Shown: piece after piece, positions 8,705 through 64,000 of the stretch
How positions within the stretch are numbered: position 1 is the first letter of the stretch
Layout: each line of letters starts with the position of its first letter
NCBI GenBank assembly: GCA_016182095.1
Contig: JACOXY010000014.1
Coordinates: 7,234 to 71,233, forward strand
DNA: 64,000 bases
Direction: 5' to 3'
From: Candidatus Liptonbacteria bacterium
GTDB taxonomy: Bacteria > Patescibacteriota > Minisyncoccia > UBA6257 > JACOXY01
Notes under the pieces: generated by a model
What the model saw: the letters and a program-made list of their open reading frames with translations, nothing else
What the model was told of the DNA's origin: nothing
Databases searched by the model: none
Made by a program: the position numbers and the translations under genes

Positions 8705-8821
8705 TACAACCTACCTTTCTGTAAGAGTAGCTGATATTCTTATAGCAAAGTGAGTAAAAATTAGCAAATTTGACTTATGGGACTAATAGGACTTATAAGT
8801 CTTATAAGACCAATAAAACAT

Positions 8822-9370: not shown

Positions 9371-9439
9371 AAAATACGGTTCGCAAACCGCATTTTATAA
9401 GTCCCATGGGGCCTATTGGACTAATAAGTCTTATAGGAC

Positions 9440-9811
9440 TTATCTTCCAAGTGTCGCCCTGATCTTTGCCACCACCTCATTCAAATTCAGCGTCGCTTTT
9501 ACCAAATAATACGCCGGTTCATATTTAATTACATCCGCCATCACCTTGTCATCAGGAATTTGATTGGTTAAAACCACTATCGGAACTTTTTTACCCAACG
9601 GATCAGCCCGAAGTTTTTCCATAACTTTAATGCCGCTCATCTTTGGCATTAGAAGGTCTAAAAGTATCATATCCGGCTTTTGGCTTAAGGCAGCAGTAAG
9701 GCCCTCTTCGCCATCTTTCGCCTCAAGGACTTCAAATCCTTCGTTTAATAATGTGTCCACTAACGCGGCGCGTAGCGGAGTTTCGTCTTCAACAATAAGA
9801 ATTTTTGCCAT
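9440..9811 (-). CDS. response regulator, receiver domain only (CheY-like)
   Basis: DETP...D(54)LLMP...K motif layout; 123 aa with no output domain. Confidence 0.85.
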   Translation of the reverse strand: MAKILIVEDETPLRAALVDTLLNEGFEVLEAKDGEEGLTAALSQKPDMILLDLLMPKMSGIKVMEKLRADPLGKKVPIVVLTNQIPDDKVMADVIKYEPAYYLVKATLNLNEVVAKIRATLGR

Positions 9812-9935
9812 CCCTCACTCAAGAAAGAGCATTATCCGCCCTCTCTTTTTTTAATTAATTTATCAACTTAATATTACTCGACTAAAAACATTTTATTCTA
9901 GAGACAGAAACCCAAACTCTTTCTTGAGTGAGGGA
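9811..9935. promoter_or_regulatory. family-1 long-range inverted repeat (TCCCTCACTCAAGAAAGAG, about 87 bp, CTCTTTCTTGAGTGAGGGA) between the histidine kinase stop and the response regulator start
   Basis: perfect 19-bp arms at 9811-9829 and 9917-9935; the proximal arm overlaps the regulator ATG and the distal arm abuts the kinase stop. Confidence 0.5.
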
Positions 9936-11744: not shown

Positions 11745-12015
11745 AAACAGCCCTGCTTTTGTACGCAAACACGCGTCACATTTCCCAGCGAGAAATGCGC
11801 GCTTGCCCTCGGACTCGCTCGCCATGCCACTTTATCTAAGCAGAATGTCTCGGAGACAGATTTAGCTTGGTTTCCGCAGGAATAAATCTGCCGAGAGCCC
11901 AAGCCCCCGACTTTCCGCCGGAGAAAGGAGAGGGGCGGTTCTGCGTGATAAAGCGGCATGGCACCAGTGCCCGCTCGTCCTCCGCACAGTTTGCTTAACA
12001 AAAGCAGGGCTGTTT
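11745..12015 (-). ncRNA. candidate structured ncRNA (about 270 nt, GC-rich, closed by an 18-bp perfect terminal helix); class unresolved (RNase P-like GGAAAGUCGGGG motif noted)
   Basis: sharp local GC elevation with no credible ORF; AAACAGCCCTGCTTTTGT / ACAAAAGCAGGGCTGTTT terminal inverted repeat; several internal perfect hairpins. Confidence 0.4.
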
Positions 12016-17357: not shown

Positions 17358-17425
17358 GGTTTGCTCCCATAGATTAAACTACCAATACTCTACGCTATGG
17401 AAAAATTAAAAACAAACGTCTTTAC

Positions 17426-17734
17426 ATGGCATATTTTAGACAATGGAAAGGACTGGGCAAAAATTGTAATATCCGTAAATACAAATATAAAAATGCCGTG
17501 ATTTACAAAGCTCGGAAAACTCTTGGGCTACCACGACACGCGCCATACGACAAAATTCTTGTGTCAGCGGCAGGAGATACGCTTCCAGAAGAACTTTTAA
17601 ACCAGTTGAGAGGGGGCGGGGTTATGGTAATCCCAATAAATAATTCAATACAAAAAATCAAAAGAGTCGCGCAAGGAAAATATAAAATAAAAACATTATG
17701 TGGATTTGCCTTCGTGCCGCTTATAAAGCCATAG
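17426..17734 (+). pseudogene. pcm: protein-L-isoaspartate O-methyltransferase, C-terminal portion only (truncated)
   Basis: PYDKILVSAAGDTLPEELLNQLRGGGVMVIPI...FAFVPL matches the PIMT C-terminus; the N-terminal SAM-binding half is absent. Confidence 0.5.
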
Positions 17735-23101: not shown

Positions 23102-23163
23102 CTTTCGGTTTGCTTTCGGGTCTATTTGCTATAATTATAATATACCGAAAGTAAACCGAAAAT
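23102..23163. promoter_or_regulatory. candidate operator: 17-bp inverted repeat TTTCGGTTTGCTTTCGG, 26 bp, CCGAAAGTAAACCGAAA, bracketing a TATAAT -10 box 4 nt upstream of the LexA-methyltransferase gene
   Basis: one mismatch between the arms; each arm holds two CTTTCGG/CCGAAAG heptads; TATAATTATAATATA lies in the spacer. Confidence 0.5.
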
Positions 23164-23166
23164 AGA

Positions 23167-24501
23167 ATGATTACACAAAAGAAAAAAGAAATATTAGATT
23201 TCGTAAAAAGTTATTCTAAAAAGAGAGGGTATTCTCCTACCATTCCTGAAATCGCAACAAAAATTGGACGGGCTTTTGGAACCATTCACGAACATCTTCG
23301 GGGGCTAGAGGAAGATGGCTTTATCCAACTTAACAAAAATCAACGCCGAGGAATAGCGATTCTTGAGTCAACCCCGATGATTAAAATTCCACTACTTGGC
23401 ACCATAGCCGCCGGCTCACCTTTAACACTCTTTGATGTGCCACAAGAAACAATCGCTGTTCCAAAAAGCAAGGTTCACTCATCTTCGGAAGTATATGCGC
23501 TTCGTGTTGTTGGGAACAGCATGATTGATGAAAATATAAATGATGGAGATATTGTTTTAGTGCACCACCAAAAAACTGCAGAAAACGGGCAGAAGGTTGT
23601 CGCGCTTATTGACAACCACGAAGCAACGCTAAAGAAATTCTACAAGGAGAGGGGGCAAATCCGCTTACAGCCAGCAAACAAAAATATGGAGCCGCTTATT
23701 TTTAGAAATGGCCGAGATGTTTCTATACAGGGAGTAATCATTGATGTTATAAGAGAAGAAACACCGGCATCTATTTCTTTGCCAGAAGTAAAAACAGAAA
23801 TTAAACAATATAAAAAACTGCCACTTAATCAAATTATTCACGGAGATGCCGTGGAGGGGTTAAAGAAACTACCAGACGACTCTATTGATTTAGTAGTCAC
23901 CGATCCCCCATATGGAATCAGTAGAGAGCTTAATTGCAAAGGTCAAAGATTGGGAACAACGGCAAAACTGAATTTTAATTTTGGTGAGTGGGATACCTTT
24001 AATAAAGATTGGTTTGAGATTGCGTTGAAAAAAACTAGAGGCTGGATGATGACCTTTTGTGCAAAAAAAGACGTAGGCTTTTTTATTGATGGTTTAGAAA
24101 AAAATGGATTTATTGCAATTGACGTGTTGGTTTGGCAGAAACCCGACCCCATTCCTCTAAACGCGAAATCCAGATTTCTTAATGCATGGGAGGCGGTAGT
24201 GATAGGCAAAAAGCCAGGCGCCATTTGGAATAGCAAATATGAACACAACATCATTAAAGTTCAGGCCCCCAAAGGGAAGAGCAGGATTCATCCCACACAG
24301 AAACCTGTTGAACTTATAAAAAAATTAATCAATTTAACCACCAAAGAGGGTGATGTTGTATTAGACCCGTTTATGGGTAGTGGAACAACAGCCGTAGCCT
24401 GTTTAGAAACGAAAAGAAACTACGTTGGTTTTGAAATATCAGAGGAGTATAGGAACCAATCCCTAAAAAGAATAAAAGCACTGCCAAAAGAGTTATTTTA
24501 A
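23167..24501 (+). CDS. fusion protein: complete LexA-type repressor (HTH plus S24 self-cleaving peptidase) joined to a beta-class N6-adenine/N4-cytosine DNA methyltransferase
   Basis: residues 1-198 align with LexA (cleavage site TIAAG|SP, Ser in VVGNSM, Lys in ATLKKF); residues about 205-444 carry DPPY (DLVVTDPPYGI) followed by FMGSGTTAVA. Confidence 0.8.
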   Translation: MITQKKKEILDFVKSYSKKRGYSPTIPEIATKIGRAFGTIHEHLRGLEEDGFIQLNKNQRRGIAILESTPMIKIPLLGTIAAGSPLTLFDVPQETIAVPKSKVHSSSEVYALRVVGNSMIDENINDGDIVLVHHQKTAENGQKVVALIDNHEATLKKFYKERGQIRLQPANKNMEPLIFRNGRDVSIQGVIIDVIREETPASISLPEVKTEIKQYKKLPLNQIIHGDAVEGLKKLPDDSIDLVVTDPPYGISRELNCKGQRLGTTAKLNFNFGEWDTFNKDWFEIALKKTRGWMMTFCAKKDVGFFIDGLEKNGFIAIDVLVWQKPDPIPLNAKSRFLNAWEAVVIGKKPGAIWNSKYEHNIIKVQAPKGKSRIHPTQKPVELIKKLINLTTKEGDVVLDPFMGSGTTAVACLETKRNYVGFEISEEYRNQSLKRIKALPKELF

Positions 24502-27867: not shown

Positions 27868-28045
27868 TTTTTAATTTATAATTTTTGGTTTATAATAGAA
27901 TTATGCCCAGTAATACAACTTACAGTATACTTGGCAAATTGTAACAAATCATTAGTAATGAACTTGAATAAATATTTATCAACTGATAAAGCTAGTTGAT
28001 TTTTATTTTTTAATAAAAATCACGCTGTAAGTTGATATACTAGGT

Positions 28046-28816
28046 ATGGCGCCTATAGAAAAGGAGGGTTATTGGACTCCATTAGAAAAACAGGTTAGAG
28101 ACTATATATTCCTGCCAATTACTTGGCCATTTAAGTTTATTCCGCATGCGGCCAACATTTTGACGATGATCGGATTCGGCATACTTTTTTATGCCATTTA
28201 CGATTTCTATATATATGAAAGCTATTCCCGCCAGATTTGGCTTTTAACCGCCGCCTGGCTCACGGATTTATTTGATGGACCGATAGCCAGAAACAACAAT
28301 GATGTAACCGCCTTCGGCACAGCCGCCGACCATATCCGCGACTACTTCATAAGTTTCTGGATGCTCACCCTCGCCTTCTTTATAACGGCAGATTCTCCGC
28401 AGTTTTGGCCGGTTTACTGGATTCTTGTTTTTACGATCTTGGGGCTTTTGGGCGTCATAGCGGGCACGTTGCTCTTCCAGAAAGAAAAACGCGGCGAGCG
28501 GCCATGGGGCGGATATCTGGATTTTTTCCGGGAATTTTTATTGAAAGATCTGGTCACGTCGGTAACGGCAAGAATACACACGGTAATCATGGCAATCGGC
28601 GGAGTTTTCTATATCGCGGGTGCCGCCTTGGGAGATGTTTACGCGAAAACAGGGGTGGTTATATTGATAATACAGCTTTTTGTTTTGGGCTTTTATAACC
28701 ACGAAATCCATGAGGCGCGCTACGAAGACAGGGCGCATAAAATAAGAAATATTCTCCAGGAAAAAATCCGCGAGTTGGAAGAAAAACTTAAAAAACACGT
28801 AAAAGTTGACGGCTAA
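28046..28816 (+). CDS. CDP-alcohol phosphatidyltransferase family protein with a C-terminal extension
   Basis: D(x2)DG(x2)AR...G(x3)D(x3)D motif: DLFDGPIARNNNDVTAFGTAADHIRD. Confidence 0.7.
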   Translation: MAPIEKEGYWTPLEKQVRDYIFLPITWPFKFIPHAANILTMIGFGILFYAIYDFYIYESYSRQIWLLTAAWLTDLFDGPIARNNNDVTAFGTAADHIRDYFISFWMLTLAFFITADSPQFWPVYWILVFTILGLLGVIAGTLLFQKEKRGERPWGGYLDFFREFLLKDLVTSVTARIHTVIMAIGGVFYIAGAALGDVYAKTGVVILIIQLFVLGFYNHEIHEARYEDRAHKIRNILQEKIRELEEKLKKHVKVDG

Positions 28817-28834: not shown

Positions 28835-29782
28835 CTATATCTTCACTCTTTCTATCGGTATTGGCGGATATCTTTCAGGATCAATAGTTCTTGAAAAACA
28901 AACCCGGCCTGCGTCATGAGACCAGTTTTCACTATAGCCGTAGGGATTATAGACGGGCTGTGCAATGGCAGCGTCTTTTAGATCGCTCCCAACGTTAAAA
29001 ACAGCGCAAAGCTCAAACGAATAATTGCCGGTTTTTACGTATTCATAAATGTTTCCGGTTTGAGGATCTTTCGGCGGGACAAATCCAGAAATATCATCAC
29101 GCAAAGCATCCAGAGAGTCGGGCAGAGCTCTTTTAGTTTGCCAATAATTCACTAACTGCGATTGCAAAATCTGGAGATCGTTTACGCGCCTATCGTCAAA
29201 TTTTTGCAGGCGCGCCGATTGCGGAGAGCCGGCAATATAAAATCCCGTTACCACAAAAGCTAAAACTACTAAAATCACCGCGGAGATAAAAACCCTCATC
29301 GTGGGATCTTTGATTGCCATCGTTTCTTTTTTAAGGTTCCAGTTATAATAAACGAAAACTGCGACAGCTATCGCGAAAACCGTTAGAACTTTAAGAATAA
29401 ACCTCACGGTAATTTCTCCGTTTAAGAATGTGTAGATTAAAGAAACCAAATCCCCCACTATCACGAGAGCAGCCAGAGATAGTGTAAAGTAAATGAGCCA
29501 CTTCCTAACCTTTAGCTCGCGCTTTTGGGGATTCTCCACCACATCTTTTTGCGTGCGGTAAGAGAGCCAGGCATAAACCGGAAAAACAACCACCAAAATA
29601 GATAGCGGCCATTTCAAGCTGTCTTTCGCGTAGCGGCCGTACTCATAAGCCAGCGGATCGGGAAAGTAAATATTAATTAACTGAAAAATCAGCGACCCCA
29701 ATGCCACAACGGTTACGTATAGGCCCATTATTGAAAGAAGGTGAAAAAACACGTCTTTCGGCCCAGTTTTTGAATGATTCAT
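28835..29782 (-). CDS. hypothetical polytopic membrane protein (315 aa)
   Basis: about six hydrophobic helices plus a C-terminal soluble domain. Confidence 0.55.
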   Translation of the reverse strand: MNHSKTGPKDVFFHLLSIMGLYVTVVALGSLIFQLINIYFPDPLAYEYGRYAKDSLKWPLSILVVVFPVYAWLSYRTQKDVVENPQKRELKVRKWLIYFTLSLAALVIVGDLVSLIYTFLNGEITVRFILKVLTVFAIAVAVFVYYNWNLKKETMAIKDPTMRVFISAVILVVLAFVVTGFYIAGSPQSARLQKFDDRRVNDLQILQSQLVNYWQTKRALPDSLDALRDDISGFVPPKDPQTGNIYEYVKTGNYSFELCAVFNVGSDLKDAAIAQPVYNPYGYSENWSHDAGRVCFSRTIDPERYPPIPIERVKI

Positions 29783-30090
29783 CCCGTTAGAGATAGGAGG
29801 CGCAACGCCTCCGTAATTTGTTTGCGACTATTTGAAATCAGGTTATTTGAAATATTTTTGCATCCCATTAAATATAGTTTGGTTATTTCTAACGGGATTC
29901 ATAATAAAATTATCATAGCATTAATTATGCGGCTTCCGCAACATATCTGGAGCTAGCGCATCATAAAACCAAAAGAAAAATAACAAGAGCGGCAAGGGAT
30001 AAAATCAGCCAGCCAAGGGTTATGAGCAGTAAATAAACCGCTTGTTTTCAAATGTGGTCAATTTTGGAAAAAGTGCGAACCCACTACGAG

Positions 30091-42178: not shown

Positions 42179-42982
42179 TCACAAATTAAAGTTCCCAAAT
42201 TGGGGCGACATTTGGAATTGATCTTCCTGTCTTATAATTTCTTTCGCGAGCTTGTTATAGGCATAGGCGCCTACTGAATTTGGAGCGTGTAATATAACCG
42301 GCTTTGCGAAACTTGGGGCTTCCGCCAAAGCTATGGACTTGGGTATTTCGGTATTGTAAACGTGATGCGGGAAATGCCTCCTTAGCTCCCTGCCAACCTC
42401 CCTGGATAATCGTTCGCGCTTATCATACATCGTAAGCACCGCTCCTGCAACCATGAGCGGATGGCGCAGATTGTCCCTTACTAAATTTATGGTGTGTAAA
42501 AGCTGGCCCAGTCCTTCCAGACTATAATACTCAGCCTGCACCGGGATCAAGACCTCGTCAGCCGCTATAAGACCATTTACGGTAAGCAGACTTAAAGACG
42601 GCGGCAAGTCTATTAAAATATAGTCGTAATTGTGTCTTATGCCAGTAATAAATTTTCGCAAACAGTGTTCTCTCTCCGGCATCTCAACTAATTCAATAAG
42701 AGCGCCTGCAAGATGAGGCCCAGCTGGGACATACGACAAGCCATAAAGCGCGGAGTTCTTGATTAGAGCGTGCGGTTCGCTAATGCCAAAAATACCATGA
42801 TAAATGGTGTGCTCCTCTCCCATCACATTGTGCCCTAATGCAGAACTCGCATTCCCCTGCGGATCAAAATCAATGACTAATGTGGAACGCCCGTGAGACG
42901 CAAGATAGCCGCCCAAATTTACGGCACTAGTGGTTTTTCCAACTCCCCCCTTAGCGTTACAAATTGCTATAACTCTGGCCAT
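42179..42982 (-). CDS. parA: chromosome partitioning ATPase ParA/Soj
   Basis: deviant Walker A KGGVGKTT; 267 aa. Confidence 0.9.
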   Translation of the reverse strand: MARVIAICNAKGGVGKTTSAVNLGGYLASHGRSTLVIDFDPQGNASSALGHNVMGEEHTIYHGIFGISEPHALIKNSALYGLSYVPAGPHLAGALIELVEMPEREHCLRKFITGIRHNYDYILIDLPPSLSLLTVNGLIAADEVLIPVQAEYYSLEGLGQLLHTINLVRDNLRHPLMVAGAVLTMYDKRERLSREVGRELRRHFPHHVYNTEIPKSIALAEAPSFAKPVILHAPNSVGAYAYNKLAKEIIRQEDQFQMSPQFGNFNL

Positions 42983-43270
42983 CCCTCACTCTTCAAGCAT
43001 TGATTCTCTCAACCGACGCTTGAGAGAGTAGAAACCTTTAGCAAAACGCTTAAGTTGCTTCTCGCGATTAAGCGCATCTGTTTTAGACCTATAACTTTCA
43101 AAATATATTAATGTCATTGGAAGCAGATGTTTAGTAGATTGAACCAGCCTTTTACTATGTTTTACTAATCTTTCTCTAAGATTTGGCGCAAAGCCTATAT
43201 AGAAACTTTTATCCTTCTTTGATTGTAATACATAAACATAAAACATAGTATATGCTTGAAGAGTGAGGGA
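42982..43270. promoter_or_regulatory. family-1 long-range inverted repeat (TCCCTCACTCTTCAAGCAT ... ATGCTTGAAGAGTGAGGGA) whose 250-bp loop contains a GIY-YIG gene; the proximal arm abuts the parA ATG
   Basis: perfect 19-bp arms at 42982-43000 and 43252-43270. Confidence 0.5.
42986..43246 (-). CDS. small GIY-YIG nuclease-superfamily protein
   Basis: MFYVYVLQSKKDKSFYIGFAPNLRERLVKH matches the GIY-YIG core; start taken at Met13 so the distal repeat arm lies in its leader. Confidence 0.7.
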   Translation of the reverse strand: MFYVYVLQSKKDKSFYIGFAPNLRERLVKHSKRLVQSTKHLLPMTLIYFESYRSKTDALNREKQLKRFAKGFYSLKRRLRESMLEE

Positions 43271-43319
43271 CGATATCTTCACTTTAACTTAAAATCGTGG
43301 TAATATCAATGAGAAAAAT

Positions 43320-47734: not shown

Positions 47735-50700
47735 TTACGCGGAAACCGAGGCTTCGCCTTCTTCATCCTCTGTCACAAGCAGATCTTCTTCGGTTACATT
47801 CAACCCCGTTCCAGCAGGTATCAACCGGCCGATAATGACGTTTTCTTTCAATCCTCTTAACTTATCAACCTTGCCCTCCGAAGAAGCCGCGACTAGCACT
47901 CTCGCTGTTTCCATAAACGAGGCGGCCGAAAGGAAGCTTTCGGTTGAAAGAGCTACTTTAGAAACACCCATTAAGAGCTGTTTCGCGCGCGCCGGCGTCT
48001 TCCCTAACCGCTTCATGGCGCGGTTAACTTCCAAAAACTTGGATTTTTCAAGAACATCTCCGAGTATAAATTCAGTGTCTCCAGAATCCACAACCCTTAC
48101 CCTTGAGAAGAGCTGGCGAATTATAACTTCAATGTGCTTGTTGTTGATTGAAACACCTTCGGAAACATAGATTCTTTGAACCTCGCTTATAATATACCTT
48201 TCAACCGCGCTTCTGTCTTTGTAGGCATAAAGTTCCTGTAAATCCACGTGACCTTCCGAGAGCTGATCGCCTTTCTTAACTGAATCTCCGGCCTTAACAT
48301 AAACTTCCGCCAAGCGGCTAACCTGATATTCAACTGCCCTGCCCTTTTTCCCCGCAAGTTTTACCTTTATAGTCTTCACCATCCCCTTCTCTTCCACGTC
48401 TAAAATTTCTCCATCATCTTCGGCAAGTAGCGCCTTGCCCTTGGGAATCCTTAACTCAAAAAGCTCCTCAACCCTAGGCAATCCGCTTGTGATATCGGCT
48501 CCGGCAACGCCGCCAGTATGGAAAGTCCTCATAGTGAGCTGAGTACCGGGCTCGCCTATTGACTGGGCGGCCACGACGCCAACACTTTCTCCGATTTTTA
48601 TGGGGTGATTGGATCCGAGATCAAGCCCATAACACTTGGCGCATATACCATACAAAGTTTTGCAAGTTATGGGCGATCTTACTTTAACGGACGCGAGATC
48701 GGATTCTTGAATATCCACGCTTGAGGCGTGATCAATAATTTCTCCGGCTTTTACCGCGGTTTTGCCCCTGCCGCCGTGAACCTTAATATCCTCCAGGGCA
48801 ACACGCGAGAATACTCTTCCAGCAAACGCGTGCCCGAATAGCTCTCCATCTTCCCTGAAAATTGAAACTCCTTCCTTAGTTTTGCAATCTTCCTCTTTAA
48901 TAATTAAATCCTGTGAAACGTCAACGAGCCGCCTTGTCAAATAGCCAGCTTGCGCCGTTTTAAGAGCGGTATCGGTTGTCCCCTTCCTTGCTCCGTGAGT
49001 TGAAATAAAGTACTCCAAAACACTTAAGCCCTCTTTAAGGGAAGACTTGATGGGCAGTTCAATAATCTCGCCCTTTGGATTTGCCATCAATCCCCTCATA
49101 CCCATCATCTGGCTGGGCTGGGCCCATGAACCGCGAGATCCGGAATCAATAATGGAATAAATCGGGTTTTCGACTTTAAGTTCAAGGGGCACGAGTTTCG
49201 CGACCTCCTTCCCGGTTCTCATCCAAACATCAATAACCCTGGCTTTGCGCTCGGCTTCGGTCAGGAATCCTTCGCTGTACTGCTCTTTTATCATTTCCAC
49301 CTCTTGCTCCGCTTTTTTAATCAATTCATATTTAGCCACGGGGATAATCATATCCGCCGCCGACCAAGTAATACCCGATTTGGTGGCAAATTCAAAACCA
49401 ATATCTTTAAGCTTATCAATTAAAAGCCGACCCTCTTCAATGCCATAGCGATTTACAACATTGCCAACCAATTTAGAAAGACTGTTTTTATTCTGGGTTT
49501 CGTTAATAAACTCATATGCTTCCGGCAACACGCTGTTGAATATGAGCCTTCCGCAGGTGCTAATTATTGTGCCATGCATATTTTTCGGATCTTTGACTGT
49601 AATCGGCTCGTTTATCATGATCGCGCCCGATTCATACGCGGCCAGGGCCTCAATCTCGCCACTCATGGCTTTTTTTGGTTCACCCTGAAGCAGGGACGTC
49701 AAATAATAAATGCCGAGCACAATATCTTTATCCGGTTTCGCAATCGGATCGCCGGTAGCCGGCTTCAAGATATTGCGGCTAGCGAGCATTAGTTCTTCCG
49801 CTTCCTTTTGAGCGTATTTTGAAAGCGGCAGGTGAACCGCCATCTGGTCGCCGTCAAAGTCAGCGTTAAAAGCCGTGCAAACCAAAGCGGGAACTTGGAT
49901 GGCCAGGCCCTCAATAAGAATCGGCTTAAAAGCCTGGATGCTTAAGCGATGCAAAGTAGGCGCCCTGTTTAAAAGCACCGTTTTGTTGGCAATTACCTCT
50001 TCTAAAATCGCCCAAACTTCCGGTGGGGCCTGTTCTATCAAACGATTTGCGTTTTTAATAGTGTAAACGAAACCATCCCGGATAAGACGGCTTATCACGA
50101 ACGGCTTGAAAAGTTCCAGGGCCATTTTTTTCGGCAAGCCGCATTCGTCAATTTTAAGCCGCGGACCGATAACGATAACCGATCTCCCGGAATAATCAAC
50201 GCGCTTGCCAAGCAGATTCTGCCTAAAGCGGCCCTGTTTGCCCTTCAGATAATCGGCGATTGATCGAAGCGGCCTCTTTTGCGCGGAGAGTTGTTGAGAT
50301 CCTATTCTCGAAGAATTATCAATGAGCGCGTCCACCGCCTCCTGTAACATTCTCTTTTCATTCACAACAATCACTTCGGGGGCCTTCAACTCCAGAAGCT
50401 TCTTCAGCCGATTATTTCTGTTTATAACACGCCGGTACAAATCATTGAGGTCAGAGGTGGCGTATCTACCTCCGTCTAAGGGCACCATTGGGCGAAGATC
50501 GGGCGGAATAACCGGCAAGGTTTTCAAAACCATCCATTCGGGGCGAATATTATTTTTATGCATTGAGCGCATGAGCTTTAGCCGCCTCATCGCCTTTCTT
50601 TTTTGCGTCGCTTCCTTGATTTCATCCACTTCCTTTTCAATTCGAATATACTCTTTCTTTAAATCAAGATTTTCAAGAATTTGACGCACCGCTTCGGCTC

Positions 50701-51310
50701 CAGAACTGGCTTTAAAAACATCGGCAAACTTTTTGGCCAGGGTGTAGTATTCGCTTTCAGAAATAATTCTGCCTACGTGGATATTTTCGAGCGCCTCTCT
50801 GGTTTTTTCGGCGGCGGCCTTGAGCTGGCTTGCCTCTTTTTTGGTATCCAGAACTTTTTGCCTTACCTGAAGTTCGCGATCAATTTCCTCCAAAACCCGC
50901 TTTTTATTTTCCTCGTTAACTGCGGTGATAATGAAAGCCGAGTAGTAAATAACCTTCTCCAGCTTCTGTGGAGACACGTTAAGAGCCAGACCAAGCCGCG
51001 AGGGAACGCTTCGTAAAAACCAGATGTGACAAACCGGCGCGGCTAAGGTTATGTGTCCCATTCTTTCCCGCCTTACTATTGCTCTCGTGACCTCCACTCC
51101 GCATTTGTCGCAAATAACCCCCTTATACCTAACCCGCTTGTACTTTCCGCAATAGCACTCCCAATCTTTGATCGGGCCGAATATCCTTTCGGAAAAAAGC
51201 CCGTCTTTTTCAGGACGCTGGGTACGATAATTGATAGTCTCCGGCTTTATGACTTCTCCATATGACCAGCTAAGTACTTCTTCCGGCGAAGCTAGTTTTA
51301 GTTTTAGTTT
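47735..51310 (-). CDS. rpoC: DNA-directed RNA polymerase subunit beta-prime; the 5' end is unresolved (see 51311-51349)
   Basis: the conserved N-terminus (LASPEEVLSWSYGEVIKPETINYRT...CYCGKYKRVRYKGVICDKCGVEV) is in frame upstream of the ORF-track start (GTG 51097) back to the TAA at 51311; no canonical start codon in that interval. Confidence 0.9.
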   Translation of the reverse strand, partial: KLKLKLASPEEVLSWSYGEVIKPETINYRTQRPEKDGLFSERIFGPIKDWECYCGKYKRVRYKGVICDKCGVEVTRAIVRRERMGHITLAAPVCHIWFLRSVPSRLGLALNVSPQKLEKVIYYSAFIITAVNEENKKRVLEEIDRELQVRQKVLDTKKEASQLKAAAEKTREALENIHVGRIISESEYYTLAKKFADVFKASSGAEAVRQILENLDLKKEYIRIEKEVDEIKEATQKRKAMRRLKLMRSMHKNNIRPEWMVLKTLPVIPPDLRPMVPLDGGRYATSDLNDLYRRVINRNNRLKKLLELKAPEVIVVNEKRMLQEAVDALIDNSSRIGSQQLSAQKRPLRSIADYLKGKQGRFRQNLLGKRVDYSGRSVIVIGPRLKIDECGLPKKMALELFKPFVISRLIRDGFVYTIKNANRLIEQAPPEVWAILEEVIANKTVLLNRAPTLHRLSIQAFKPILIEGLAIQVPALVCTAFNADFDGDQMAVHLPLSKYAQKEAEELMLASRNILKPATGDPIAKPDKDIVLGIYYLTSLLQGEPKKAMSGEIEALAAYESGAIMINEPITVKDPKNMHGTIISTCGRLIFNSVLPEAYEFINETQNKNSLSKLVGNVVNRYGIEEGRLLIDKLKDIGFEFATKSGITWSAADMIIPVAKYELIKKAEQEVEMIKEQYSEGFLTEAERKARVIDVWMRTGKEVAKLVPLELKVENPIYSIIDSGSRGSWAQPSQMMGMRGLMANPKGEIIELPIKSSLKEGLSVLEYFISTHGARKGTTDTALKTAQAGYLTRRLVDVSQDLIIKEEDCKTKEGVSIFREDGELFGHAFAGRVFSRVALEDIKVHGGRGKTAVKAGEIIDHASSVDIQESDLASVKVRSPITCKTLYGICAKCYGLDLGSNHPIKIGESVGVVAAQSIGEPGTQLTMRTFHTGGVAGADITSGLPRVEELFELRIPKGKALLAEDDGEILDVEEKGMVKTIKVKLAGKKGRAVEYQVSRLAEVYVKAGDSVKKGDQLSEGHVDLQELYAYKDRSAVERYIISEVQRIYVSEGVSINNKHIEVIIRQLFSRVRVVDSGDTEFILGDVLEKSKFLEVNRAMKRLGKTPARAKQLLMGVSKVALSTESFLSAASFMETARVLVAASSEGKVDKLRGLKENVIIGRLIPAGTGLNVTEEDLLVTEDEEGEASVSA

Positions 51311-51349
51311 TTACTATACCCCATACCCTATGCCCCATACCCTTTTCAT
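51311..51349 (-). other. anomalous rpoC 5' end: ATG overlapping the rpoB stop (TAATG), 11 codons of G-rich repeats (GGGTATG GGGCATA GGGTATG GGGTA, G-quadruplex-like), then in-frame TAG TAA, then (AAAACT)x3 leading into conserved beta-prime sequence
   Basis: read directly from the minus strand; an alternative +1-frame ATG (51338-51336) would join the rpoC frame with a single-base shift inside the (AAAACT)3 repeat. Confidence 0.6.
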
Positions 51350-54300
51350 TATTTCTGTCTATCTTGTTTTATCGCCTGACCTTGATCGTCCAATAACTCC
51401 ACGCCCAATCCCAGCGCCTTTAACTCATTGGTTAAAACACTAAAGGTCGCGGGGACATTAGGCGCTTTTATCGGCTCATCCCGTATAATTGATTCAAAAG
51501 CCGATGAACGACCCGCAATGTCGTCTGATTTAATGGTCAGCATTTCCTGAAGCGTGTAAGCCGCGCCGTAACCTTCAAGAGCCCAGACTTCCATCTCTCC
51601 AAATCTCTGGCCACCGAACTGCGCCTTGCCTCCCAATGGCTGCTGTGTAACCAGTGAATATGGGCCGATTGATCTCATGTGAATCTTGTCCTCCACCAAG
51701 TGGTTAAGTTTCATGATATAGATATAACCAACCATAACCTCCTTATCAAAAGACCTGCCGACTCTGCCGTCATAAAGCTTTACCTTGCCGCTTTCGGGAA
51801 GATTAGCGGCCCGCAGTTCCGCCCTTATTTCTTCTTCGGAGGCCCCGGATAAAGCCGGGGTTACCGCCCGGAAACCATTCACGTGGGCCGCCCAACCTAA
51901 ATGGGTTTCCAAAATCTGCCCGATATTCATGCGAGACGTAACGCCCAAAGGATTTAGTATAATGTCAACCGTGGTGCCATCCTCAAGATATGGCATATCT
52001 TCCACCGGCCGAATTTGCGAGATAACGCCCTTGTTGCCATGGCGGCCGGCGAGTTTGTCGCCAGCTCTCACATTTCGTAATTGCGCTATCTCAACCTGGA
52101 TTCTTTTTATAACCCCGGGCTCAAGCCTATCTCCTCTCTCGCGTGAAAAAATTTTAACACCCACAATACGTCCGTATTTCCCATGCGGCAAGGTTAATGA
52201 GGTATCCTTGACATCACGAGCTTTTTCACCGAATATGGCCCGCAATAATCTTTCCTCCGACGTAAGTTCGGTCTCTCCCTTGGGAGATATTTTCCCCACG
52301 AGAATATCCCCCGATCTCACCTCGGCGCCGACCCTCACAATCCCCTCCTCGTCAAGATTTTTTAGCTTTTCCTCTGAAACATTTGAAATGTCGGGGGTAA
52401 TTATCTCCGGACCAAGTTTGGTGTCGCGAACATCGCAGTAAAAATCTTCTATGTAGATTGAAGAAAATCTATCCCCCTGAACTACGCGCTCCGAAAGAAT
52501 AATGGCATCTTCAAAATTGGCGCCCTCCCAAGAAGCAAAAGCAACCAAAAGATTTTGGCCCAAACCCAAAACGCCGTTTACCGTGCCGGGGCCGTCAACC
52601 AGAGTTTCCCCCTTCTTAACGACACTCCCTTTAGTAAGCAATAATCTCTGCGAAATAGAGGTGCCTTGATTGGATCGCTTAAAATTAAGCAGTTCGTAGG
52701 TTTTGGTGCCTAATTTTTTATACTTTAGAGTAAGTCCCGTTGCGTCAGCTTTAACGATTTCGCCATTATCTTCGGCCTTAATAAGGTAGCCCGAATCATG
52801 GGCGGCTTTTTCCTCAACGCCAGTGCCCACATAGGGAACTTGCGGCTTAACGGCAATTACTGCCTGTCTCTGCATGTTTGAGCCCATTAGGGCGCGGTTT
52901 GCGTCATCATGCCTTAAAAATGGGATTAAAGATGTTGAGACGCTAATAAATTGCTCCGGAGAAATATCCATAAAATCAACCTCTTCCTTTGGGCACGTGC
53001 CCGGCGCGCCCTTAATTCTTGCCTCAATGGAATCCTCAACAATTTTCTTGCCATCCAATTTAATACCGCCATGGGCAATTTTATATTTTTCCTCTTCCAG
53101 GGCATCCAGCCAAACCACTTCGTTCGTCACTACGCCGTTCTTTACTTTTACATACGGGGTTTCCAAAAAACCATAGGGGCTAATTCTGGCATATCCGGCT
53201 ATATAATTTATGAGCCCGATATTGGCACCCTCCGGGGTTTGAATCGGACAGATGCGGCCGTAATGCGATGTGTGGACATCGCGCACTTCAAATCCGGCTC
53301 TTTCGCGAGTCAGCCCGCCGGGGCCCATCGCGGAAAGACGCCTCTTATGCTCAATCTCAGACAAGGGATTTACCTGATCCATGAACTGTGAAAGCTGGGA
53401 TGACGCAAAAAACTCCTTAACTGTGGCCATTAGAGGCCTCACATTCAAAAGAGCGCCTGGGGCGAAACTTTCTTCCGCGATAGTGGACATTCTGTCCTGC
53501 ACAACCCTACGAAGGCGCGCGAAGCCAACCCTCATCTTGTTTTGCAAGAGTTCGCCAACGGCGCGAACGCGCCTGTTGCCAAGGTGGTCTATGTCATCCG
53601 GTTCCGCCATTGGATCATTATTAAGACGGATAAGTTCTTTAACTATCAAGACCAAATCATCAAATCTCAAAAGCCGCGAGTCAGATTTAATCTGTAATCT
53701 CTGATTCATTTTAAATCTTCCAACCATTGAAAGGTCATAGCGGTCAAACCTCTTAAACATGGCGTCAATTAAAGATTTGGCGTTTTCCGGCGTAGCCAAG
53801 TCGCCGGGCCTTAAACGTTTGTAGATTTCCAGATAAGATTCGTCAAAATTTTTGGCCGCGTCTTTTTTCAAGGTTGCCTGAAGATGTTTTATCGGCCCAA
53901 CATCAATATCTTTGAAAAGTTCGGTAAACGCGCTTCCCTCTTCATATTTTTTGCCTTCCATGGAAGCGAAGGCGCGAAGCAAATCTGTTATGGGAACTTT
54001 GCGACGGCGATCAATTTTAACCCCAATAAGCCCGTCCGGATCAGTTTCCAATTCAAGCCAAGCTCCCCGGTTAGGAATTACTTTAGCGCCAAAAAGCTTT
54101 TTGCCTCTGTAAACAACGGCCGTAAAATAAACTCCGGGAGATCTTATGAGCTGTGAGATAACAACTCTCTCAACCCCATTTATAATAAAAGTCCCCCTCG
54201 CGGTCATGAGGGGCACATCTCCGATGTAAACATCTTGGGTCTTATCTTTTTTGCTTTTCAGATTCACTAAGCGCAAGGTGGCCCTAAGTGCCGCTTCAAA

Positions 54301-54534
54301 AGTCAATCCTTTCTCAATTGACTGGACTTCATTATATTTTGGTTCATCAAAGCGGAATTCGTCAAAATGGAGTTCGTACTCTTTGCCGGTATAATCCTTA
54401 ATCGGAGACACCTCTCCAAACAGCTCTTTCAAGCCATCACCCAAAAACCAGCGATATGACTGTGTTTGAATTTCTGACAAATCTGGCTGGGGCGTTAGAG
54501 CTCCTACACCATGAGAAAAGTATTTTATAGTCAT
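51349..54534 (-). CDS. rpoB: DNA-directed RNA polymerase subunit beta
   Basis: 1061 aa with conserved beta-subunit blocks throughout. Confidence 0.95.
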   Translation of the reverse strand: MTIKYFSHGVGALTPQPDLSEIQTQSYRWFLGDGLKELFGEVSPIKDYTGKEYELHFDEFRFDEPKYNEVQSIEKGLTFEAALRATLRLVNLKSKKDKTQDVYIGDVPLMTARGTFIINGVERVVISQLIRSPGVYFTAVVYRGKKLFGAKVIPNRGAWLELETDPDGLIGVKIDRRRKVPITDLLRAFASMEGKKYEEGSAFTELFKDIDVGPIKHLQATLKKDAAKNFDESYLEIYKRLRPGDLATPENAKSLIDAMFKRFDRYDLSMVGRFKMNQRLQIKSDSRLLRFDDLVLIVKELIRLNNDPMAEPDDIDHLGNRRVRAVGELLQNKMRVGFARLRRVVQDRMSTIAEESFAPGALLNVRPLMATVKEFFASSQLSQFMDQVNPLSEIEHKRRLSAMGPGGLTRERAGFEVRDVHTSHYGRICPIQTPEGANIGLINYIAGYARISPYGFLETPYVKVKNGVVTNEVVWLDALEEEKYKIAHGGIKLDGKKIVEDSIEARIKGAPGTCPKEEVDFMDISPEQFISVSTSLIPFLRHDDANRALMGSNMQRQAVIAVKPQVPYVGTGVEEKAAHDSGYLIKAEDNGEIVKADATGLTLKYKKLGTKTYELLNFKRSNQGTSISQRLLLTKGSVVKKGETLVDGPGTVNGVLGLGQNLLVAFASWEGANFEDAIILSERVVQGDRFSSIYIEDFYCDVRDTKLGPEIITPDISNVSEEKLKNLDEEGIVRVGAEVRSGDILVGKISPKGETELTSEERLLRAIFGEKARDVKDTSLTLPHGKYGRIVGVKIFSRERGDRLEPGVIKRIQVEIAQLRNVRAGDKLAGRHGNKGVISQIRPVEDMPYLEDGTTVDIILNPLGVTSRMNIGQILETHLGWAAHVNGFRAVTPALSGASEEEIRAELRAANLPESGKVKLYDGRVGRSFDKEVMVGYIYIMKLNHLVEDKIHMRSIGPYSLVTQQPLGGKAQFGGQRFGEMEVWALEGYGAAYTLQEMLTIKSDDIAGRSSAFESIIRDEPIKAPNVPATFSVLTNELKALGLGVELLDDQGQAIKQDRQK

Positions 54535-54705: not shown

Positions 54706-54830
54706 GCCCAGTAACACTACTTCAGTGTTACCCGACATATAAGCAAACTAATTGTCATAAAACAATGTCAAAATGCCAAACTAATAATTTATGCTTCGGA
54801 AATAAATTATGCTGAAGTAGTGTTACTGGG
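54706..54830. repeat. 20-bp perfect inverted repeat (GCCCAGTAACACTACTTCAG / CTGAAGTAGTGTTACTGGGC) separated by an about 85-bp AT-rich spacer, 170-300 bp upstream of rpoB; the left arm also folds locally
   Basis: seen in the sequence; same promoter-flanking inverted-repeat architecture as other loci in this window. Confidence 0.6.
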
Positions 54831-54859
54831 CAAGTCTTTGTAATATAATGCTTTCGCAC

Positions 54860-55796
54860 TTACCTTAAATACAATGCCCTGTTTAAACTGTGCTCCTCCA
54901 GATCCTTGCTGAAAATGGTTTTCCCGGTTTTCGGGTCGGAAAGATAAAACCAATAAGAACTTTGCTGCGGATTAATAGCAGCTCTTATCGCTTCAAGACC
55001 GGGGTTTGCGATGGGCGTAGGCGGCAAGCCTTTATTGATATAAGTATTATATGGTGAGTCTATTTTTAAGTCAAGTGGGGTAATCGGGTGGCATGGCATG
55101 GGCACAACATAACATATTGTAGCATCTACCTGCAATGGCCAGCCGGATTTGATTCTTTTTTGGAGTATCCCGGAAACAATGCGCCTCTCTTTAAAATCGG
55201 TAAGTTCTTTTTCCAATAGTGAAGCTAAAATAATGGTTTTGTAGGCATTGGAATTCTTTGTGTCGGAAATAAGATTATTTTTTGCCCCCAAGCCCAAGAG
55301 GCCGCTTACTTTTTCGTCAAAATTATCCAAAAATTTTTGAACCACGTCCTTGGGCTCGGAATCTATATGAAATTTATAGGTATCCGGGAAAAGAAAGCCC
55401 TCCAAATCTTCCCGATATTCCGTGAGTTCGTTCGGCGAGATAACCCCGCTATCCGATAAGATTTTGTCTATTTCTTTGAGCGTGGCCCCTTCGGGAACGA
55501 GAACCTCCACCTCATCAACGCCTCCTTTTACTAAAACGCGAACCAGCCCATAGGCGGAATAACTGGCTCTTAATTTATAAAGTCCCGGTTTCTTTTTGAA
55601 GAACATCGGCTATGTCGCTTACCCCAAAACCGCGTTTTATTAAAACAGTCTTTTCTTCAATACTACCTATATCTGCCGGCATCATTCCGTAAATTAAATA
55701 TATAAAAAAAACCGCGAACACCGACGCGCCCCAAATTATGTAGGAGGATTTTTTTCGCTCATTCAAAATGTCGCTTGTTGTTTTTGTTGAAATCAT
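54860..55796 (-). pseudogene. mltG: endolytic murein transglycosylase MltG/YceG, split into two frames (frameshift near 55575-55606)
   Basis: N-terminal TM plus start of the YceG domain in ORF 55575-55796; the remainder (LQVDATICYV, YNTYINKGLPPTPIANPG) in ORF 54860-55606; the overlap lies in an A-rich tract (AAAAAGAAA). Confidence 0.65.
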
Positions 55797-55971
55797 TTTA
55801 TAGACCTTTTGTACAATTCCTTTTCTACTGCAATTTCCATATTTTGGCTACGGCTTTGTAAAAATTTCTTGAAATATATTCTGTATATTCCTTCAAAATT
55901 TTTACTTCGCCTCGCTCAAGATCTGAAAATTTCGTTACGAAAAGAATTGTACAAAAGGTCTTTCTATATTA

Positions 55972-57916: not shown

Positions 57917-57955
57917 AAATTCATCATATAAAATCTTTTTTCTCTCGCGCTCTCC

Positions 57956-58091
57956 GCAATATATAAATTATCCTTGCTTCTCCTAAAAAATGAATAAGAA
58001 AATGCCGAACTCAACCTGGTTTTGCTAAAGCAAAACTGCGGGATTCAAACAGCGGCATTTTCTTATTTTTTACTCGAAGCTTCGGTAATTT
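57956..58091. repeat. left arm of an about 135-bp near-perfect inverted repeat; each arm is a nested palindrome resembling a bidirectional terminator
   Basis: reverse complement of 59503-59638 with about 2 mismatches; inner 15-bp stem AATAAGAAAATGCCG/CGGCATTTTCTTATT with flanking A- and T-runs. Confidence 0.85.
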
Positions 58092-59502
58092 ATATATCTT
58101 GCTACGCGATGCTTATTCAAAAAGATTTTATGCTCTTACATATATTAAGATAATAGCAGAAAAAATAAAATAGAAAAAGCCCCGCCAACTTGTGACGAGG
58201 CGGCCCCGCGCAGTTTATCAATGCCCGGGGTGGTGGCTGGGGGTGCCGTAGCACCTAGGGCCTGCCACCTCGGTCAGAGACTGGATCCTTGAAGCGCGTC
58301 CCCTTGTGGGGCCGCCTTCAAGTTGTGAGCCACTGGCTCACAAACAAGCGCGATCCAATCTCCTGGAAAATTTTAAGAACTCGCGGAGGGAGATGTCGGC
58401 CTATCCCGTGGCTCGGTTGCCGGCTGGTCGGGCCAGGCAGAACGGCAGCTTGCGCTGCGGCCTTGTTTCCGTCGTTGCCCAGCGCCCATTCCCCGACAGT
58501 TTACCGGACATCTCCTCCCGCGAAATCTGGGCTCGCAGCTTCGCACAATTGACAACTGACACTTAACAATTGACTTGTGCAGACAAGCGCAAATTTCGTG
58601 GGATAAGTTTATTTTATTTCCTGAGCCTGTCGAAGGAATACAATACTGTAGTGCTTCGACTACGCTCAGCAACTAAATTTTCACCCCCCCAAGTAAATGT
58701 TTTTCACTATCTGCCTTTCCTGAAATATCTTACTTGAATGAAACGATTGACTGAAAAACACTTACTTGGTACATTACAGCTACGCCCAGAACTTCGTCGG
58801 GCCCGCGCGCACGACATACGGTGCGTTAGCCGGCCACCTCTGGACGTAGGACTTGCGGCGACCTCGAGATCACCGCGCACCAATGAAAAGAACTTGCGAA
58901 GCTCGGAAGAACAACTTCCGTCGTCTTACGGTTCGGAAACCCCGAACGCTGCAGCGGTAACAGCTCCCACGGCCAGCGCCAAGCACCAGCATCCGAGCTC
59001 CCGGCGAATATTGGAGGTGTGCTGCCCGGACCAGCACACCCCCGCTGCTTTAGCCAATCTCCAGGAAGTGTCTCGGGCCTCCCAAGATTGGATTTCAACA
59101 TTATAGCATACTATCCAGAATAATGCAAGTAGTCAAAAAAACAGCGTGAAATAAGGGTTTTATAAGCAAGTGAGAAGCCCAACTTTGTGACATCCGATGT
59201 CCAGAAACAAAAGACATTAATATTCGGGACATCGGAAGTCAATGCAAAGTCCAACTTTGCGACATCCGATATCTAAAGATGTGGCTGCGGAAAGAAGCCC
59301 AACTTTGTGACTTCCGATGTCCAGAAACAAAAAACTTCAACCCTTCGACTTCGCTCAGGGCAGGCATTTAGGACTTCGGATGTAAGGGGTTATCCTACTA
59401 TATACTGCCCCACTTGGCGCCAAAAAGCCACACGAGGGGTAAGACCTAATATTTGGAAAATGGCGCAACATTTTTTTATGAGCATCACACAGCAATATCT
59501 AT
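58092..59502. other. about 1.4-kb GC-rich non-coding structured element of unknown class, bounded by the 135-bp inverted repeats
   Basis: no ORF longer than 122 codons despite high GC; overlapping short ORFs in all frames; many perfect local and long-range helices; three about 42-bp direct repeats at 59174-59335. Confidence 0.4.
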
Positions 59503-59638
59503 AAATTATCGAAGCTTCGAGTAAAAAATAAGAAAATGCCGCTGTCTGAATCCCGCAGTTTTGCTTTAGCAAAACCAGGTTGAGTTCGGCATTTTCTTAT
59601 TCATTTTTTAGGAGAAGCAAGGATAATTTATATATTGC
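59503..59638. repeat. right arm of the about 135-bp inverted repeat
   Basis: see the left arm. Confidence 0.85.
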
Positions 59639-59669
59639 AGGGGGCGCGAAGAAAAAAACGTTGTGCCAT

Positions 59670-62057: not shown

Positions 62058-63302
62058 CTAATGGGCAATTTTCACAACCCGAACTTTCTGAATCTGGTGG
62101 CCAGACACTTCTTCCACTTGAAATTTAAGCCCATTTAACTCAAAAGCTTCGCCAAGTTCCGGGGCGTGATTAAGTTTTTCCGTAAGAAATCCGTGTAATG
62201 TTTTCTTGGACTTGATCTCGGTATTGAAAAAATGGTTAATAGAGGCGATTTTTGTCTGGCCATGAGCAATAATCTCATCTTTGCTCACGCGCTTGATAAT
62301 CTCGGGCACAATATCTTTTTCGTCAATAATTTCTCCGACCAATTCCTCCAATACGTCTTCAAGGCCAACCACGCCCACAATATTGCCATACTCACTAACT
62401 ACAACCGCTAAATGCAAACGCTTCTCCTGAAAATCGTGTATGAGATCATCCGCAAGCCGGGTATCGGGAACAAAGAATGCCTCTTTGGCGTAACTCAAAA
62501 CTTTTTTATCAAACTCATCGCTCGCGAGGGCGCGCAAAAGATCTCTCTGGTGGACGATGCCCACGATATTATCTTTATTTCCCTGATACACTGGGAGGCG
62601 CGAATGCTTGGCGTTTTTAATAAATTCAGCGGCATCTTTTATGGTAACCCCGCCGTCCAAAAAAGTAACAAAGGGCCGCGGAGTCATCATGTCTCCGGCG
62701 GTAATGTCATTCAATTTAAATACGCGCTCAATCATGGCGGCTTCGCCGGCCCGGATCACGCCCTCTTTCACGCCCGCCTGGGTTAAGAGCGCGATTTCTT
62801 CTTCGGAGGTCGTAAATGGCGAGGCACCGCTCGTAAACGGCTTTGAAATAATTTCTAAAATTACGACCAGTGGAGAAATAAGAATAGTAAGCCAAGAAAG
62901 TGGAACCGCGGCTAACGGAAAAATAACAGGGCTCCAGCGCTCACCGATATTTTTAGGAAGAATCTCGGCAAGAGTAATCATAAAAAATGTCAGTATCGCC
63001 GAAAAAATCCCGATGCCTAAATCAGAAAAAAGCTCCGCGGCAAGCGTTCCCATGAAAATACTCCCCACAGTACTTATAGTCGAAGAAAGCACCACAAGCG
63101 TCGCGATGGTTTTTAACGGCTTTTCGCGCAATTCCAATGCCTTTCGCACCCCAAATTTACCTTGCGCAACATAGACACGCGCCTTAGAAATGGGGTAAGA
63201 AAATAGCGCCGCCTCAATCAAAGAAAGCGTCCCGCCTATTGTTATTAATCCTAAAGCCAAAATGACTAAAGCTGCCATACCCGGTATATCAACTTTCAGC
63301 AT
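62058..63302 (-). CDS. CNNM/CorC-HlyC family transporter (DUF21 TM domain, tandem CBS, CorC_HlyC C-terminal domain)
   Basis: four N-terminal TM helices, CBS pair, C-terminal transporter-associated domain. Confidence 0.8.
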   Translation of the reverse strand: MLKVDIPGMAALVILALGLITIGGTLSLIEAALFSYPISKARVYVAQGKFGVRKALELREKPLKTIATLVVLSSTISTVGSIFMGTLAAELFSDLGIGIFSAILTFFMITLAEILPKNIGERWSPVIFPLAAVPLSWLTILISPLVVILEIISKPFTSGASPFTTSEEEIALLTQAGVKEGVIRAGEAAMIERVFKLNDITAGDMMTPRPFVTFLDGGVTIKDAAEFIKNAKHSRLPVYQGNKDNIVGIVHQRDLLRALASDEFDKKVLSYAKEAFFVPDTRLADDLIHDFQEKRLHLAVVVSEYGNIVGVVGLEDVLEELVGEIIDEKDIVPEIIKRVSKDEIIAHGQTKIASINHFFNTEIKSKKTLHGFLTEKLNHAPELGEAFELNGLKFQVEEVSGHQIQKVRVVKIAH

Positions 63303-64000
63303 GATTTATTTTTGCAAAATAAATCATTAAATCTGGTGGTTGATAATATTTATGATAATTTAATTTATTTTAAACTTTTTCGCATTTTGCCAAAAAACTG
63401 AAAGTTGTATTACTGGGCATAGTTTTAGCATACGGAAATTATGGGAAAATAACAAAGCTACGCACCAGAACAAGTTCGGTGCGTTACTTCACTTCGTTTA
63501 GCTTTCTCTCACAAATTAAAAAAGTTTGTTCTACTTTATCAAGTTCTTCGGAACTGAAGGCGCTACGGTGCCGGCCCCTAACCCACTGCGGTTGGGGGTT
63601 TTTTATTTTAAACAAAAATCCGCCTCTCGGCGAAATTTTTCTGCTCTTCTTTGTGCTGGCGTACCCTACTTTCCCAGTGATAGTATCATCAGGCTTAGAC
63701 GCTTTCACTTCTCTGTTCGGAATGGGAAGAGGTGGTGCACATCCAAGTAAAACACCAGCACAAAAAAGACCAGATTAAATTTTAATATAGAAATTAGCAG
63801 ATATATGCCTTCCTTAGGAAGGGCACAGTCAGCATTGGGATGGTCGGCACCCATTAGTACCCTTTGGCTCGGCACTCTCTACACAAATATCGCGAAACAT
63901 TGGAAGCTCAAAATTATGCCGGAGCTCGCGGCGCGACGACGAAAGTGTACTCGAAGAGTACATTGAGGAGGAGCAACAAAGAGATCATCTAATTTTGAGT

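Follow-up and report, generated by a model that had tools for sequence, protein, structure and literature searches.

In dnaX-type -1 frameshifting, the ribosome slips on A AAA AAG between an upstream Shine-Dalgarno (SD)-like element and a downstream hairpin, and an SD-like run at a spacing of about 12 nt stimulates the shift. The prfB-type +1 frameshift takes place at CUU UGA C, with an SD sequence 3 nt upstream. Adjacent operon genes are coupled by stop and start codons that overlap (TAATG, ATGA), and RNA G-quadruplexes are found in bacterial translation-initiation regions. Homopolymer indels split genes in MAGs as artefacts. On Illumina, HiFi and ONT alike, G-quadruplex (G4) motifs, direct repeats and homopolymers raise the rate of indel errors; deletions in particular are more frequent at the motifs and repeats, with a strong link to homopolymers (PMC10519405).

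The rpoB-rpoC junction of a Candidatus Liptonbacteria genome, which lies in the 64,000-nt stretch of DNA analysed here (the window), has something of each of these. As in dnaX, there is an A-run that encodes lysine, a zero-frame stop follows the site directly, and a G-run that resembles an SD lies 12 nt upstream, although it may equally serve initiation. As in prfB, the P-site tRNA could re-pair perfectly in +1 (AAA A), and the upstream sequence is G-rich. The rpoB stop overlaps an ATG by one base, as in coupled genes, and a canonical G4 motif (four G3+ runs with loops N1-7) on the mRNA strand spans both candidate AUGs, with a predicted energy of about -10 kcal/mol. As in the MAG artefacts, the break falls in a homopolymer, here with direct repeats and a G4 motif beside it; adding or removing one base restores the full-length gene, and the relatives are intact. 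We conclude that the break at the start of rpoC very probably arose because the A-run was recorded one base wrong, or through a small misassembly to the same effect, in a gene with an ordinary ATG start. The "start-less" rpoC is most likely not a real feature, and its first codons stand one base out of frame.

The features of the junction, all on the minus strand, are as follows.

51349-54534, minus strand: rpoB (beta subunit), 1061 codons in the list of open reading frames (ORFs), stop TAA at 51351-51349; six of six Pfam Rpb2 domains are full, and relatives have 1060-1068 aa.
51314-51349, minus strand: mini-ORF of the first ATG, 11 codons (MKRVWGIGYGV) and then TAG at 51316-51314; it is in the rpoC frame, and its ATG overlaps the rpoB stop.
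51336-51338, minus strand: second ATG, +1 frame; an A4 run would bring it into the rpoC frame, with the product MGHRVWGIVKLKLKLASPEE.
51322-51324, minus strand: third ATG, rpoB frame; an A6 run would bring it into the rpoC frame, with the product MGYSKKLKLKLASPEE; a GGGG run stands 8 nt upstream.
51316-51343, minus strand: 14-nt tandem duplication, AGGGTATGGGGCAT / AGGGTATGGGGTAT (TRF period 14, 2.1 copies, 93% match).
51311-51313, minus strand: second in-frame stop, TAA, directly 5' of the conserved beta-prime sequence.
51308-51312, minus strand: A5 homopolymer, the sole place where a one-base change joins an upstream ATG to the conserved frame.
51293-51311, minus strand: hexamer repeat (AAAACT)x3.2, coding KLKLKL in the rpoC frame (TRF period 6, 100% match).
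47735-51310, minus strand: reading frame of rpoC (beta-prime), which runs from the double stop to the rpoC stop and is intact in other respects, with Pfam Rpb1 domains 1-5 present.
51095-51097, minus strand: GTG, the first canonical start in the rpoC frame; its use would remove the N-terminal 71 residues, including the CxC...CxxC zinc motif.

The last A of the rpoB stop doubles as the first base of ATG 51349-51347. From there the frame reads ATG AAA AGG GTA TGG GGC ATA GGG TAT GGG GTA TAG TAA, with the stops at 51316-51314 and 51313-51311, and continues as (AAA CTA)x3 GCT TCG CCG, or KLKLKLASPEE. The translation is thus MKRVWGIGYGV, two stops and then KLKLKLASPEEVLSWSYGEV. The 1192-codon beta-prime reading frame lies in this frame, and its residue 2 is aligned with profile position 7 of Pfam RNA_pol_Rpb1_1. 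However, the overlapping ATG differs from that of a coupled gene pair, since it opens an 11-codon ORF closed by TAG-TAA and is not the rpoC start as recorded. The ATG at 51338 reads MGHRVWGIVKTKTKTSFAGRST up to a stop. The initial annotation had described the TAATG overlap, the double stop, the (AAA CTA)x3 repeat and the conserved N-terminus, and we found all of these base for base on the minus strand; ATG 51338 also lies in the +1 frame, as it had said. It was right, too, that no ATG, GTG or TTG separates the double stop from the conserved region. The first such codon is the GTG at 51097, correctly positioned there but described as 70 codons inside the conserved sequence; it is codon 72, downstream of the zinc motif CYCGKY...CDKCG. 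Near-cognate start codons are absent between TAA 51311 and ATA 51250, and this ATA is already within GEVIKPE in the conserved core. The description of the genome as AT-rich did not hold, because the GC content is 38-47.5% per 4 kb of the window and 46.9% locally.

We compared the junction with those of related genomes. Over the first 400 aa, beta-prime is 79% identical to P0001 from an uncultured bacterium, the top protein-search match, and 68-72% identical to proteins of Colwellbacteria, Liptonbacteria and Wolfebacteria (Parcubacteria/Patescibacteria). The gene order ftsW, yceG, rpoB, rpoC, rpsF, ssb, rpsR, PAP2 is that of the nearest relatives. We fetched 85 related loci and scored the 76 with a recognisable ASP...ETINYR motif. 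All 76 have an in-frame start 9-30 codons upstream, before any stop (ATG, with GTG in one), and about 118 related beta-prime proteins have ordinary in-frame starts. The initial annotation had named ordinary rpoC starts in relatives, beforehand, as the finding that would speak against an exotic mechanism, and this is what the loci and the proteins have. With 0 of 76 related loci lacking an in-frame start, the absence of one here is more than chance. In the nearest relative (79% identity), rpoC begins with a plain ATG. The three closest rpoB-rpoC junctions have spacers of 184, 6 and 90 nt, and none of the three contains G-rich repeats or in-frame stops past the start codon. We also looked for a second copy from the same species. 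No exact match to the rpoB product was on record, a degenerate DNA pattern for ASPEEVLSWSYGEVIKP had 0 matches in metagenome contigs, and a scan of genome contigs gave only relatives at no more than 60% identity.

The relatives also locate the break. The residues at positions -5, -3 and -1 before the A of ASP are I, L or V in 114 to 117 of the 116 to 118 relatives scored per position, and here they are the leucines encoded by CTA 51307, CTA 51301 and CTA 51295. Because TAG-TAA shuts the rpoC frame upstream to 51311, and because the frame must hold by CTA 51307, only the A5 run at 51312-51308 is left as a place for the shift. The initial annotation had proposed a one-base shift and was correct in this, although its placement inside (AAAACT)3 was loose. 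The three CTA codons stand in series as part of (AAAACT)3 (51293-51307, minus strand), and CTA is the rarest Leu codon here, at 7%.

Two one-base changes mend the gene. With A6 in place of A5, ATG 51324 comes into frame and the product begins MGYSKKLKLKLASPEE; with A4, ATG 51338 comes into frame and the product begins MGHRVWGIVKLKLKLASPEE. Both products have lengths inside the family range. The initial annotation had seen that ATG 51338 could be brought into frame, and it can with A4, but it overlooked ATG 51324, which is an equally simple and slightly better repair. In the A6 version, the distance from Met to the A of ASP is 11 residues, the same as in the nearest relatives P0001 (MNDFNSIRLKIASPED), P0002 and P0003, and the spacing is 10 or 11 in 36 of 118 relatives. 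When scored against a profile of the relatives' N termini, ATG 51324 gains +3.5 bits and ATG 51338 scores -2.0 bits. The GGGG run is 8 nt upstream of ATG 51324, whereas the G-runs are just 1 nt from ATG 51338. Because of this Met-to-ASP spacing, the GGGG position and the better profile score, we prefer ATG 51324 as the probable true start. The preference is mild, because position -8 is F, L or I in 113 of 116 relatives, and ATG 51338 supplies Ile there while the A6 version has Ser; the A4 version fits more poorly elsewhere. The SD argument for ATG 51324 is also weakened, because only about half of Parcubacteria retain a recognisable anti-SD (PMC9297842). Several genes of the window have GGAGG-like sites at normal spacing.

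Other repairs were considered and set aside. A change in the copy number of the 7- or 14-nt repeat does not restore the frame, since TAG-TAA lies downstream of the repeats and the out-of-frame continuation of the last ATG is unchanged. A fusion of rpoB and rpoC does not apply here, because the rpoB frame holds TAA, TGA, TAG and further stops. In P0015 and P0023, the rpoB C terminus is in frame with the rpoC N terminus (...ALGLNIEPIYESPHDHKDDFKALKISIASPED), which suggests that rpoB-rpoC fusions may exist in some Parcubacteria.

We propose that rpoB and rpoC of this Parcubacteria-type (Patescibacteria) genome would meet at an ordinary junction with tight spacing, and that the A homopolymer at 51312-51308 would have been recorded one base wrong, through a sequencing or consensus indel or a small misassembly. 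The likely setting of the error is a single stretch that holds the G4 motif, two tandem repeats and the homopolymer. In this scenario, the true run is most likely A6, and rpoC would start at ATG 51324, 24 nt past the rpoB stop and 8 nt past the GGGG SD-like run. A true run of A4, with the start at ATG 51338, is somewhat less likely. The initial annotation had listed a homopolymer sequencing error among its options, and this is the one that the evidence favours. The extra or missing base is thus most likely an artefact and not biology, as judged from the sequence.

The G-runs that the initial annotation had called striking are indeed four, at 51342-51340, 51336-51333, 51328-51326 and 51322-51319 on the minus strand. 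However, they are one 14-nt tandem duplication, AGGGTATGGGG[C/T]AT twice at 51343-51316, with one ATG per copy; it can also be read as four RGGGYAT heptamers. The G4 motif GGGTATGGGGCATAGGGTATGGGG (51342-51319, minus strand) has four runs of at least 3 G with loops of 1-7 nt, and it is the sole canonical motif of this kind in the window. In a Markov-1 random sequence, 0.62 such motifs are expected per 64 kb and the probability of at least one is 0.46, so the one observed is not above chance. The A-run lies 6 nt from the motif and is the beginning of the hexamer repeat. A G4 prediction for the RNA had been named as a check. ViennaRNA with its G4 term gave a three-layer quadruplex over both AUGs (51338 and 51324) as the predicted minimum-energy fold, at -9.8 kcal/mol versus -2.6 kcal/mol without the term, and without the term the fold of the junction is no better than that of shuffled sequence (z = -0.58). 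From this single sequence, one might conjecture that such a quadruplex could make rpoC initiation depend on ribosomes arriving from rpoB. The motif differs from the quadruplexes of bacterial initiation regions in that it is one 14-nt duplication that is absent from the three closest junctions, does not exceed chance and is known here from prediction. The heptamer GGGTATG occurs in 10 copies in the window versus 3.45 expected. It was rejected as a general start-site motif, because just one other copy sits at a start.

We then asked how reliable the assembly is around rpoB. Essentially all ORFs of at least 90 aa were scanned against Pfam. About 60 ORFs of the window have full-length matches, and no other break was seen in the roughly 2250 codons of rpoB and rpoC. 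Because the rest of the window looks clean, the assembly is not generally indel-ridden, and the case differs from the MAG artefacts in that the window has very few other broken genes. However, yceG/mltG (54860-55847, minus strand), the next gene upstream of rpoB, falls into two ORFs in different frames, of which the N-terminal one (73 aa) holds the membrane anchor and the other (248 aa) the catalytic part. The frame switch is possible only in about 33 nt that include CAAAAAG, and about 21 codons are missing compared with relatives. In all, about 62-64 nt are deleted and the frame is changed, which a simple homopolymer miscall does not explain. The split gene is either a pseudogene or a local assembly fault. 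At 17378-17734 (plus strand), only the C-terminal half of PCMT (protein-L-isoaspartate O-methyltransferase) is present, matching profile positions 116-206 of 210; this ORF abuts the lipoate ligase gene on the opposite strand and looks like a gene remnant. The assembly around rpoB is good, not perfect.

Could the recorded sequence be correct, with the sole beta-prime made by ribosomal frameshifting in A5 within the first 6-10 codons? We consider this very unlikely. The frames are exactly one base apart at the lysine A-run, and there are two candidate routes. From AUG 51324, a -1 shift would use U AAA AAC followed directly by the zero-frame stop UAA. The AGGG run at 51329-51326 is 12 nt and GGGG is 5 nt upstream of this heptamer, although the same G-runs are also likely to be the ribosome-binding site for initiation. 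From AUG 51338, tRNA-Lys could move +1 from AAA to the overlapping AAA at GUA AAA ACU, re-pairing on AAA A. The SD-like G-runs or the RNA quadruplex predicted to be stable over both AUGs might assist the shift or tune the amount of beta-prime relative to beta. In addition, rpoC is essential, yet the remainder of the gene is intact. However, most of the defining features of the programmed frameshift suggested in the initial annotation fail. Unlike the dnaX site, U AAA AAC is imperfect, because its first position is U and not A, so that the P-site codon would re-pair on UAA with a first-position mismatch. No hairpin or pseudoknot follows, as the 98 nt from the A-run fold at -15.6 kcal/mol, the level of shuffled sequence (z = -0.03). 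The site also lies 5 codons past the start, and the shift would be needed not for an alternative product but for the sole one, beta-prime, whose output would have to match that of beta. Unlike the prfB site, the +1 route has neither a stop nor a rare codon in the A site (ACT makes up 24% of the Thr codons in the window), and its SD spacing is 7 nt, not 3. Neither site is conserved: 0 of 76 related loci need a shift, and nothing alike occurs in the nearest relative at 79% identity. Transcriptional slippage was discarded because A5 is far too short for it. Rfam gave no match at the junction, at the gathering threshold or at E values up to 5, a promoter and terminator scan of the junction gave none, and our literature search found no frameshift-dependent rpoC.

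A DNA that is real but defective or chimeric is a likelier alternative than frameshifting, although still an improbable one. Candidates are a haplotype that is minor or dead, a product of single-cell amplification, and a larger misassembly in which strain variants were merged at the 14- and 6-nt repeats; any of these would imply more than one base of difference from the functional allele. One C/T difference separates the two 14-mers, which is what strain alleles would show; the deletion in the neighbouring yceG goes beyond a homopolymer miscall; and the PCMT fragment shows gene decay in this genome. On the other hand, a single base in the A-run suffices for a normal gene, changes in repeat copy number cannot restore the frame, and the rest of rpoC shows no decay. 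The least probable reading, which we regard as extremely unlikely, is that beta-prime is made without a canonical start or through the stops, by reinitiation after the TAATG mini-ORF, by read-through or reassignment of TAG and TAA, or by ribosome hopping. In favour of this reading, overlaps such as TAATG are classic in coupled genes, and ATG 51349 shares the rpoC frame. However, the termination-reinitiation at a non-canonical codon that had been suggested finds no near-cognate codon between the stops and the conserved sequence, and two consecutive stops of different kinds block the frame. TAA and TAG together end 43 of 52 ORFs of the window (TAA 29, TAG 14, TGA 9), the conserved genes of the window are full length under table 11, and no suppressor tRNA is among the five tRNAs in the window. 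Pyrrolysine and selenocysteine were dismissed on the same grounds, the block being a TAG-TAA pair and stop usage being standard elsewhere. Hopping from GUA 51319 has a sole matching landing codon, GUA 51314-51312, which leads to the wrong frame.

Breaks of this kind occur in other assemblies of the group. In a relative at 69% identity, L085 (positions 6501-10108, on the same contig as L083), rpoC is likewise cut into two overlapping ORFs, called as 541 and 667 aa with a 22-nt overlap. The first of these is out of the conserved frame by QDIVLGCYFLT, and because of this we read the split as a frameshift in that MAG. Beta-prime calls of 400-620 aa on long contigs, which may be errors or true splits, were seen in several other relatives (P0008, P0022, P0042, P0105 and P0116). 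Breaks like that of L085 show that such artefacts are common in the group.

The main value of the finding is as a quality flag and annotation warning. At face value, gene callers would start rpoC at GTG 51097, with loss of the zinc-binding N terminus, or would call an essential marker a pseudogene. Either miscall distorts annotation, completeness estimates and marker-gene phylogeny of an uncultured lineage. If the sequence were correct, this would be the first RNA polymerase core subunit with recoding-dependent synthesis, but the evidence points the other way.

Elsewhere, the window has many intergenic segments, 100-290 nt long, that are closed by perfect inverted repeats of 11-22 bp and have fold z-scores of -2.9 to -6.8. 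These are more interesting than the rpoC start. Their positions in the window, and that of one more in L081, are as follows.

2859-2988: inverted-repeat segment.
9810-9936: inverted-repeat segment.
42982-43270: inverted-repeat segment.
42058 to about 42160: inverted-repeat segment.
46194 to about 46297: inverted-repeat segment.
29774-29905: inverted-repeat segment.
7758-7908: inverted-repeat segment.
54706-54831: inverted-repeat segment.
27903-28047: inverted-repeat segment.
63277-63420: inverted-repeat segment.
11745-12015: inverted-repeat segment.
3888-4000 of L081: inverted-repeat segment.

In the segments ahead of rplK, parA, the response-regulator gene and the DUF5671 gene, the 3' arm takes in the AT of the gene's ATG. 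For parB the arm stops immediately before the TTG start, and for rpsR it stops 6 nt short of the TTG start. The stems fall into at least four sequence families (CCCTCACTC.., CCCCGCYCTCTA.., CCCGTTAGARAT.. and CCCAGTAAYAC..), and the interiors are not conserved between copies. One stem family is also present in the nearest relative, where it closes off the spacer between rpoB and rpoC, 1 nt ahead of the rpoC ATG. The segments have no Rfam match; MITE-like elements and RNase III-type processing stems are both possible identities for them. A 100-aa GIY-YIG nuclease ORF (42989-43288, minus strand) sits just upstream of parA, within the inverted-repeat element whose arms are 42982-43000 and 43252-43270. 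This suggests that the short elements may derive from a mobile GIY-YIG cassette.

Several other genes of the window are unusual. The gyrB gene (4390-7743, minus strand, 1118 aa) carries an intein between the gyrase B and Toprim domains (Pfam Intein_splicing, residues 466-891). A single 448-aa ORF at 23155-24501 (plus strand) combines a complete LexA (TIGR00498 positions 3-201 of 203) with an N6/N4 DNA methyltransferase (residues 226-444). Either the fusion is natural, if unusual, or the loss of a stop has merged two genes. Two 212-nt inverted repeats (57936-58147 and 59447-59658) that are 87% complementary surround a 1.3-kb segment, which could be invertible or mobile; two small ORFs within it have no family match. 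In the CNNM/CorC transporter gene (63276-63302, minus strand), the open frame matches Pfam from its residue 15 onwards, and the start is probably ATG 63278, right after the hairpin arm, and not the first ATG at 63302.
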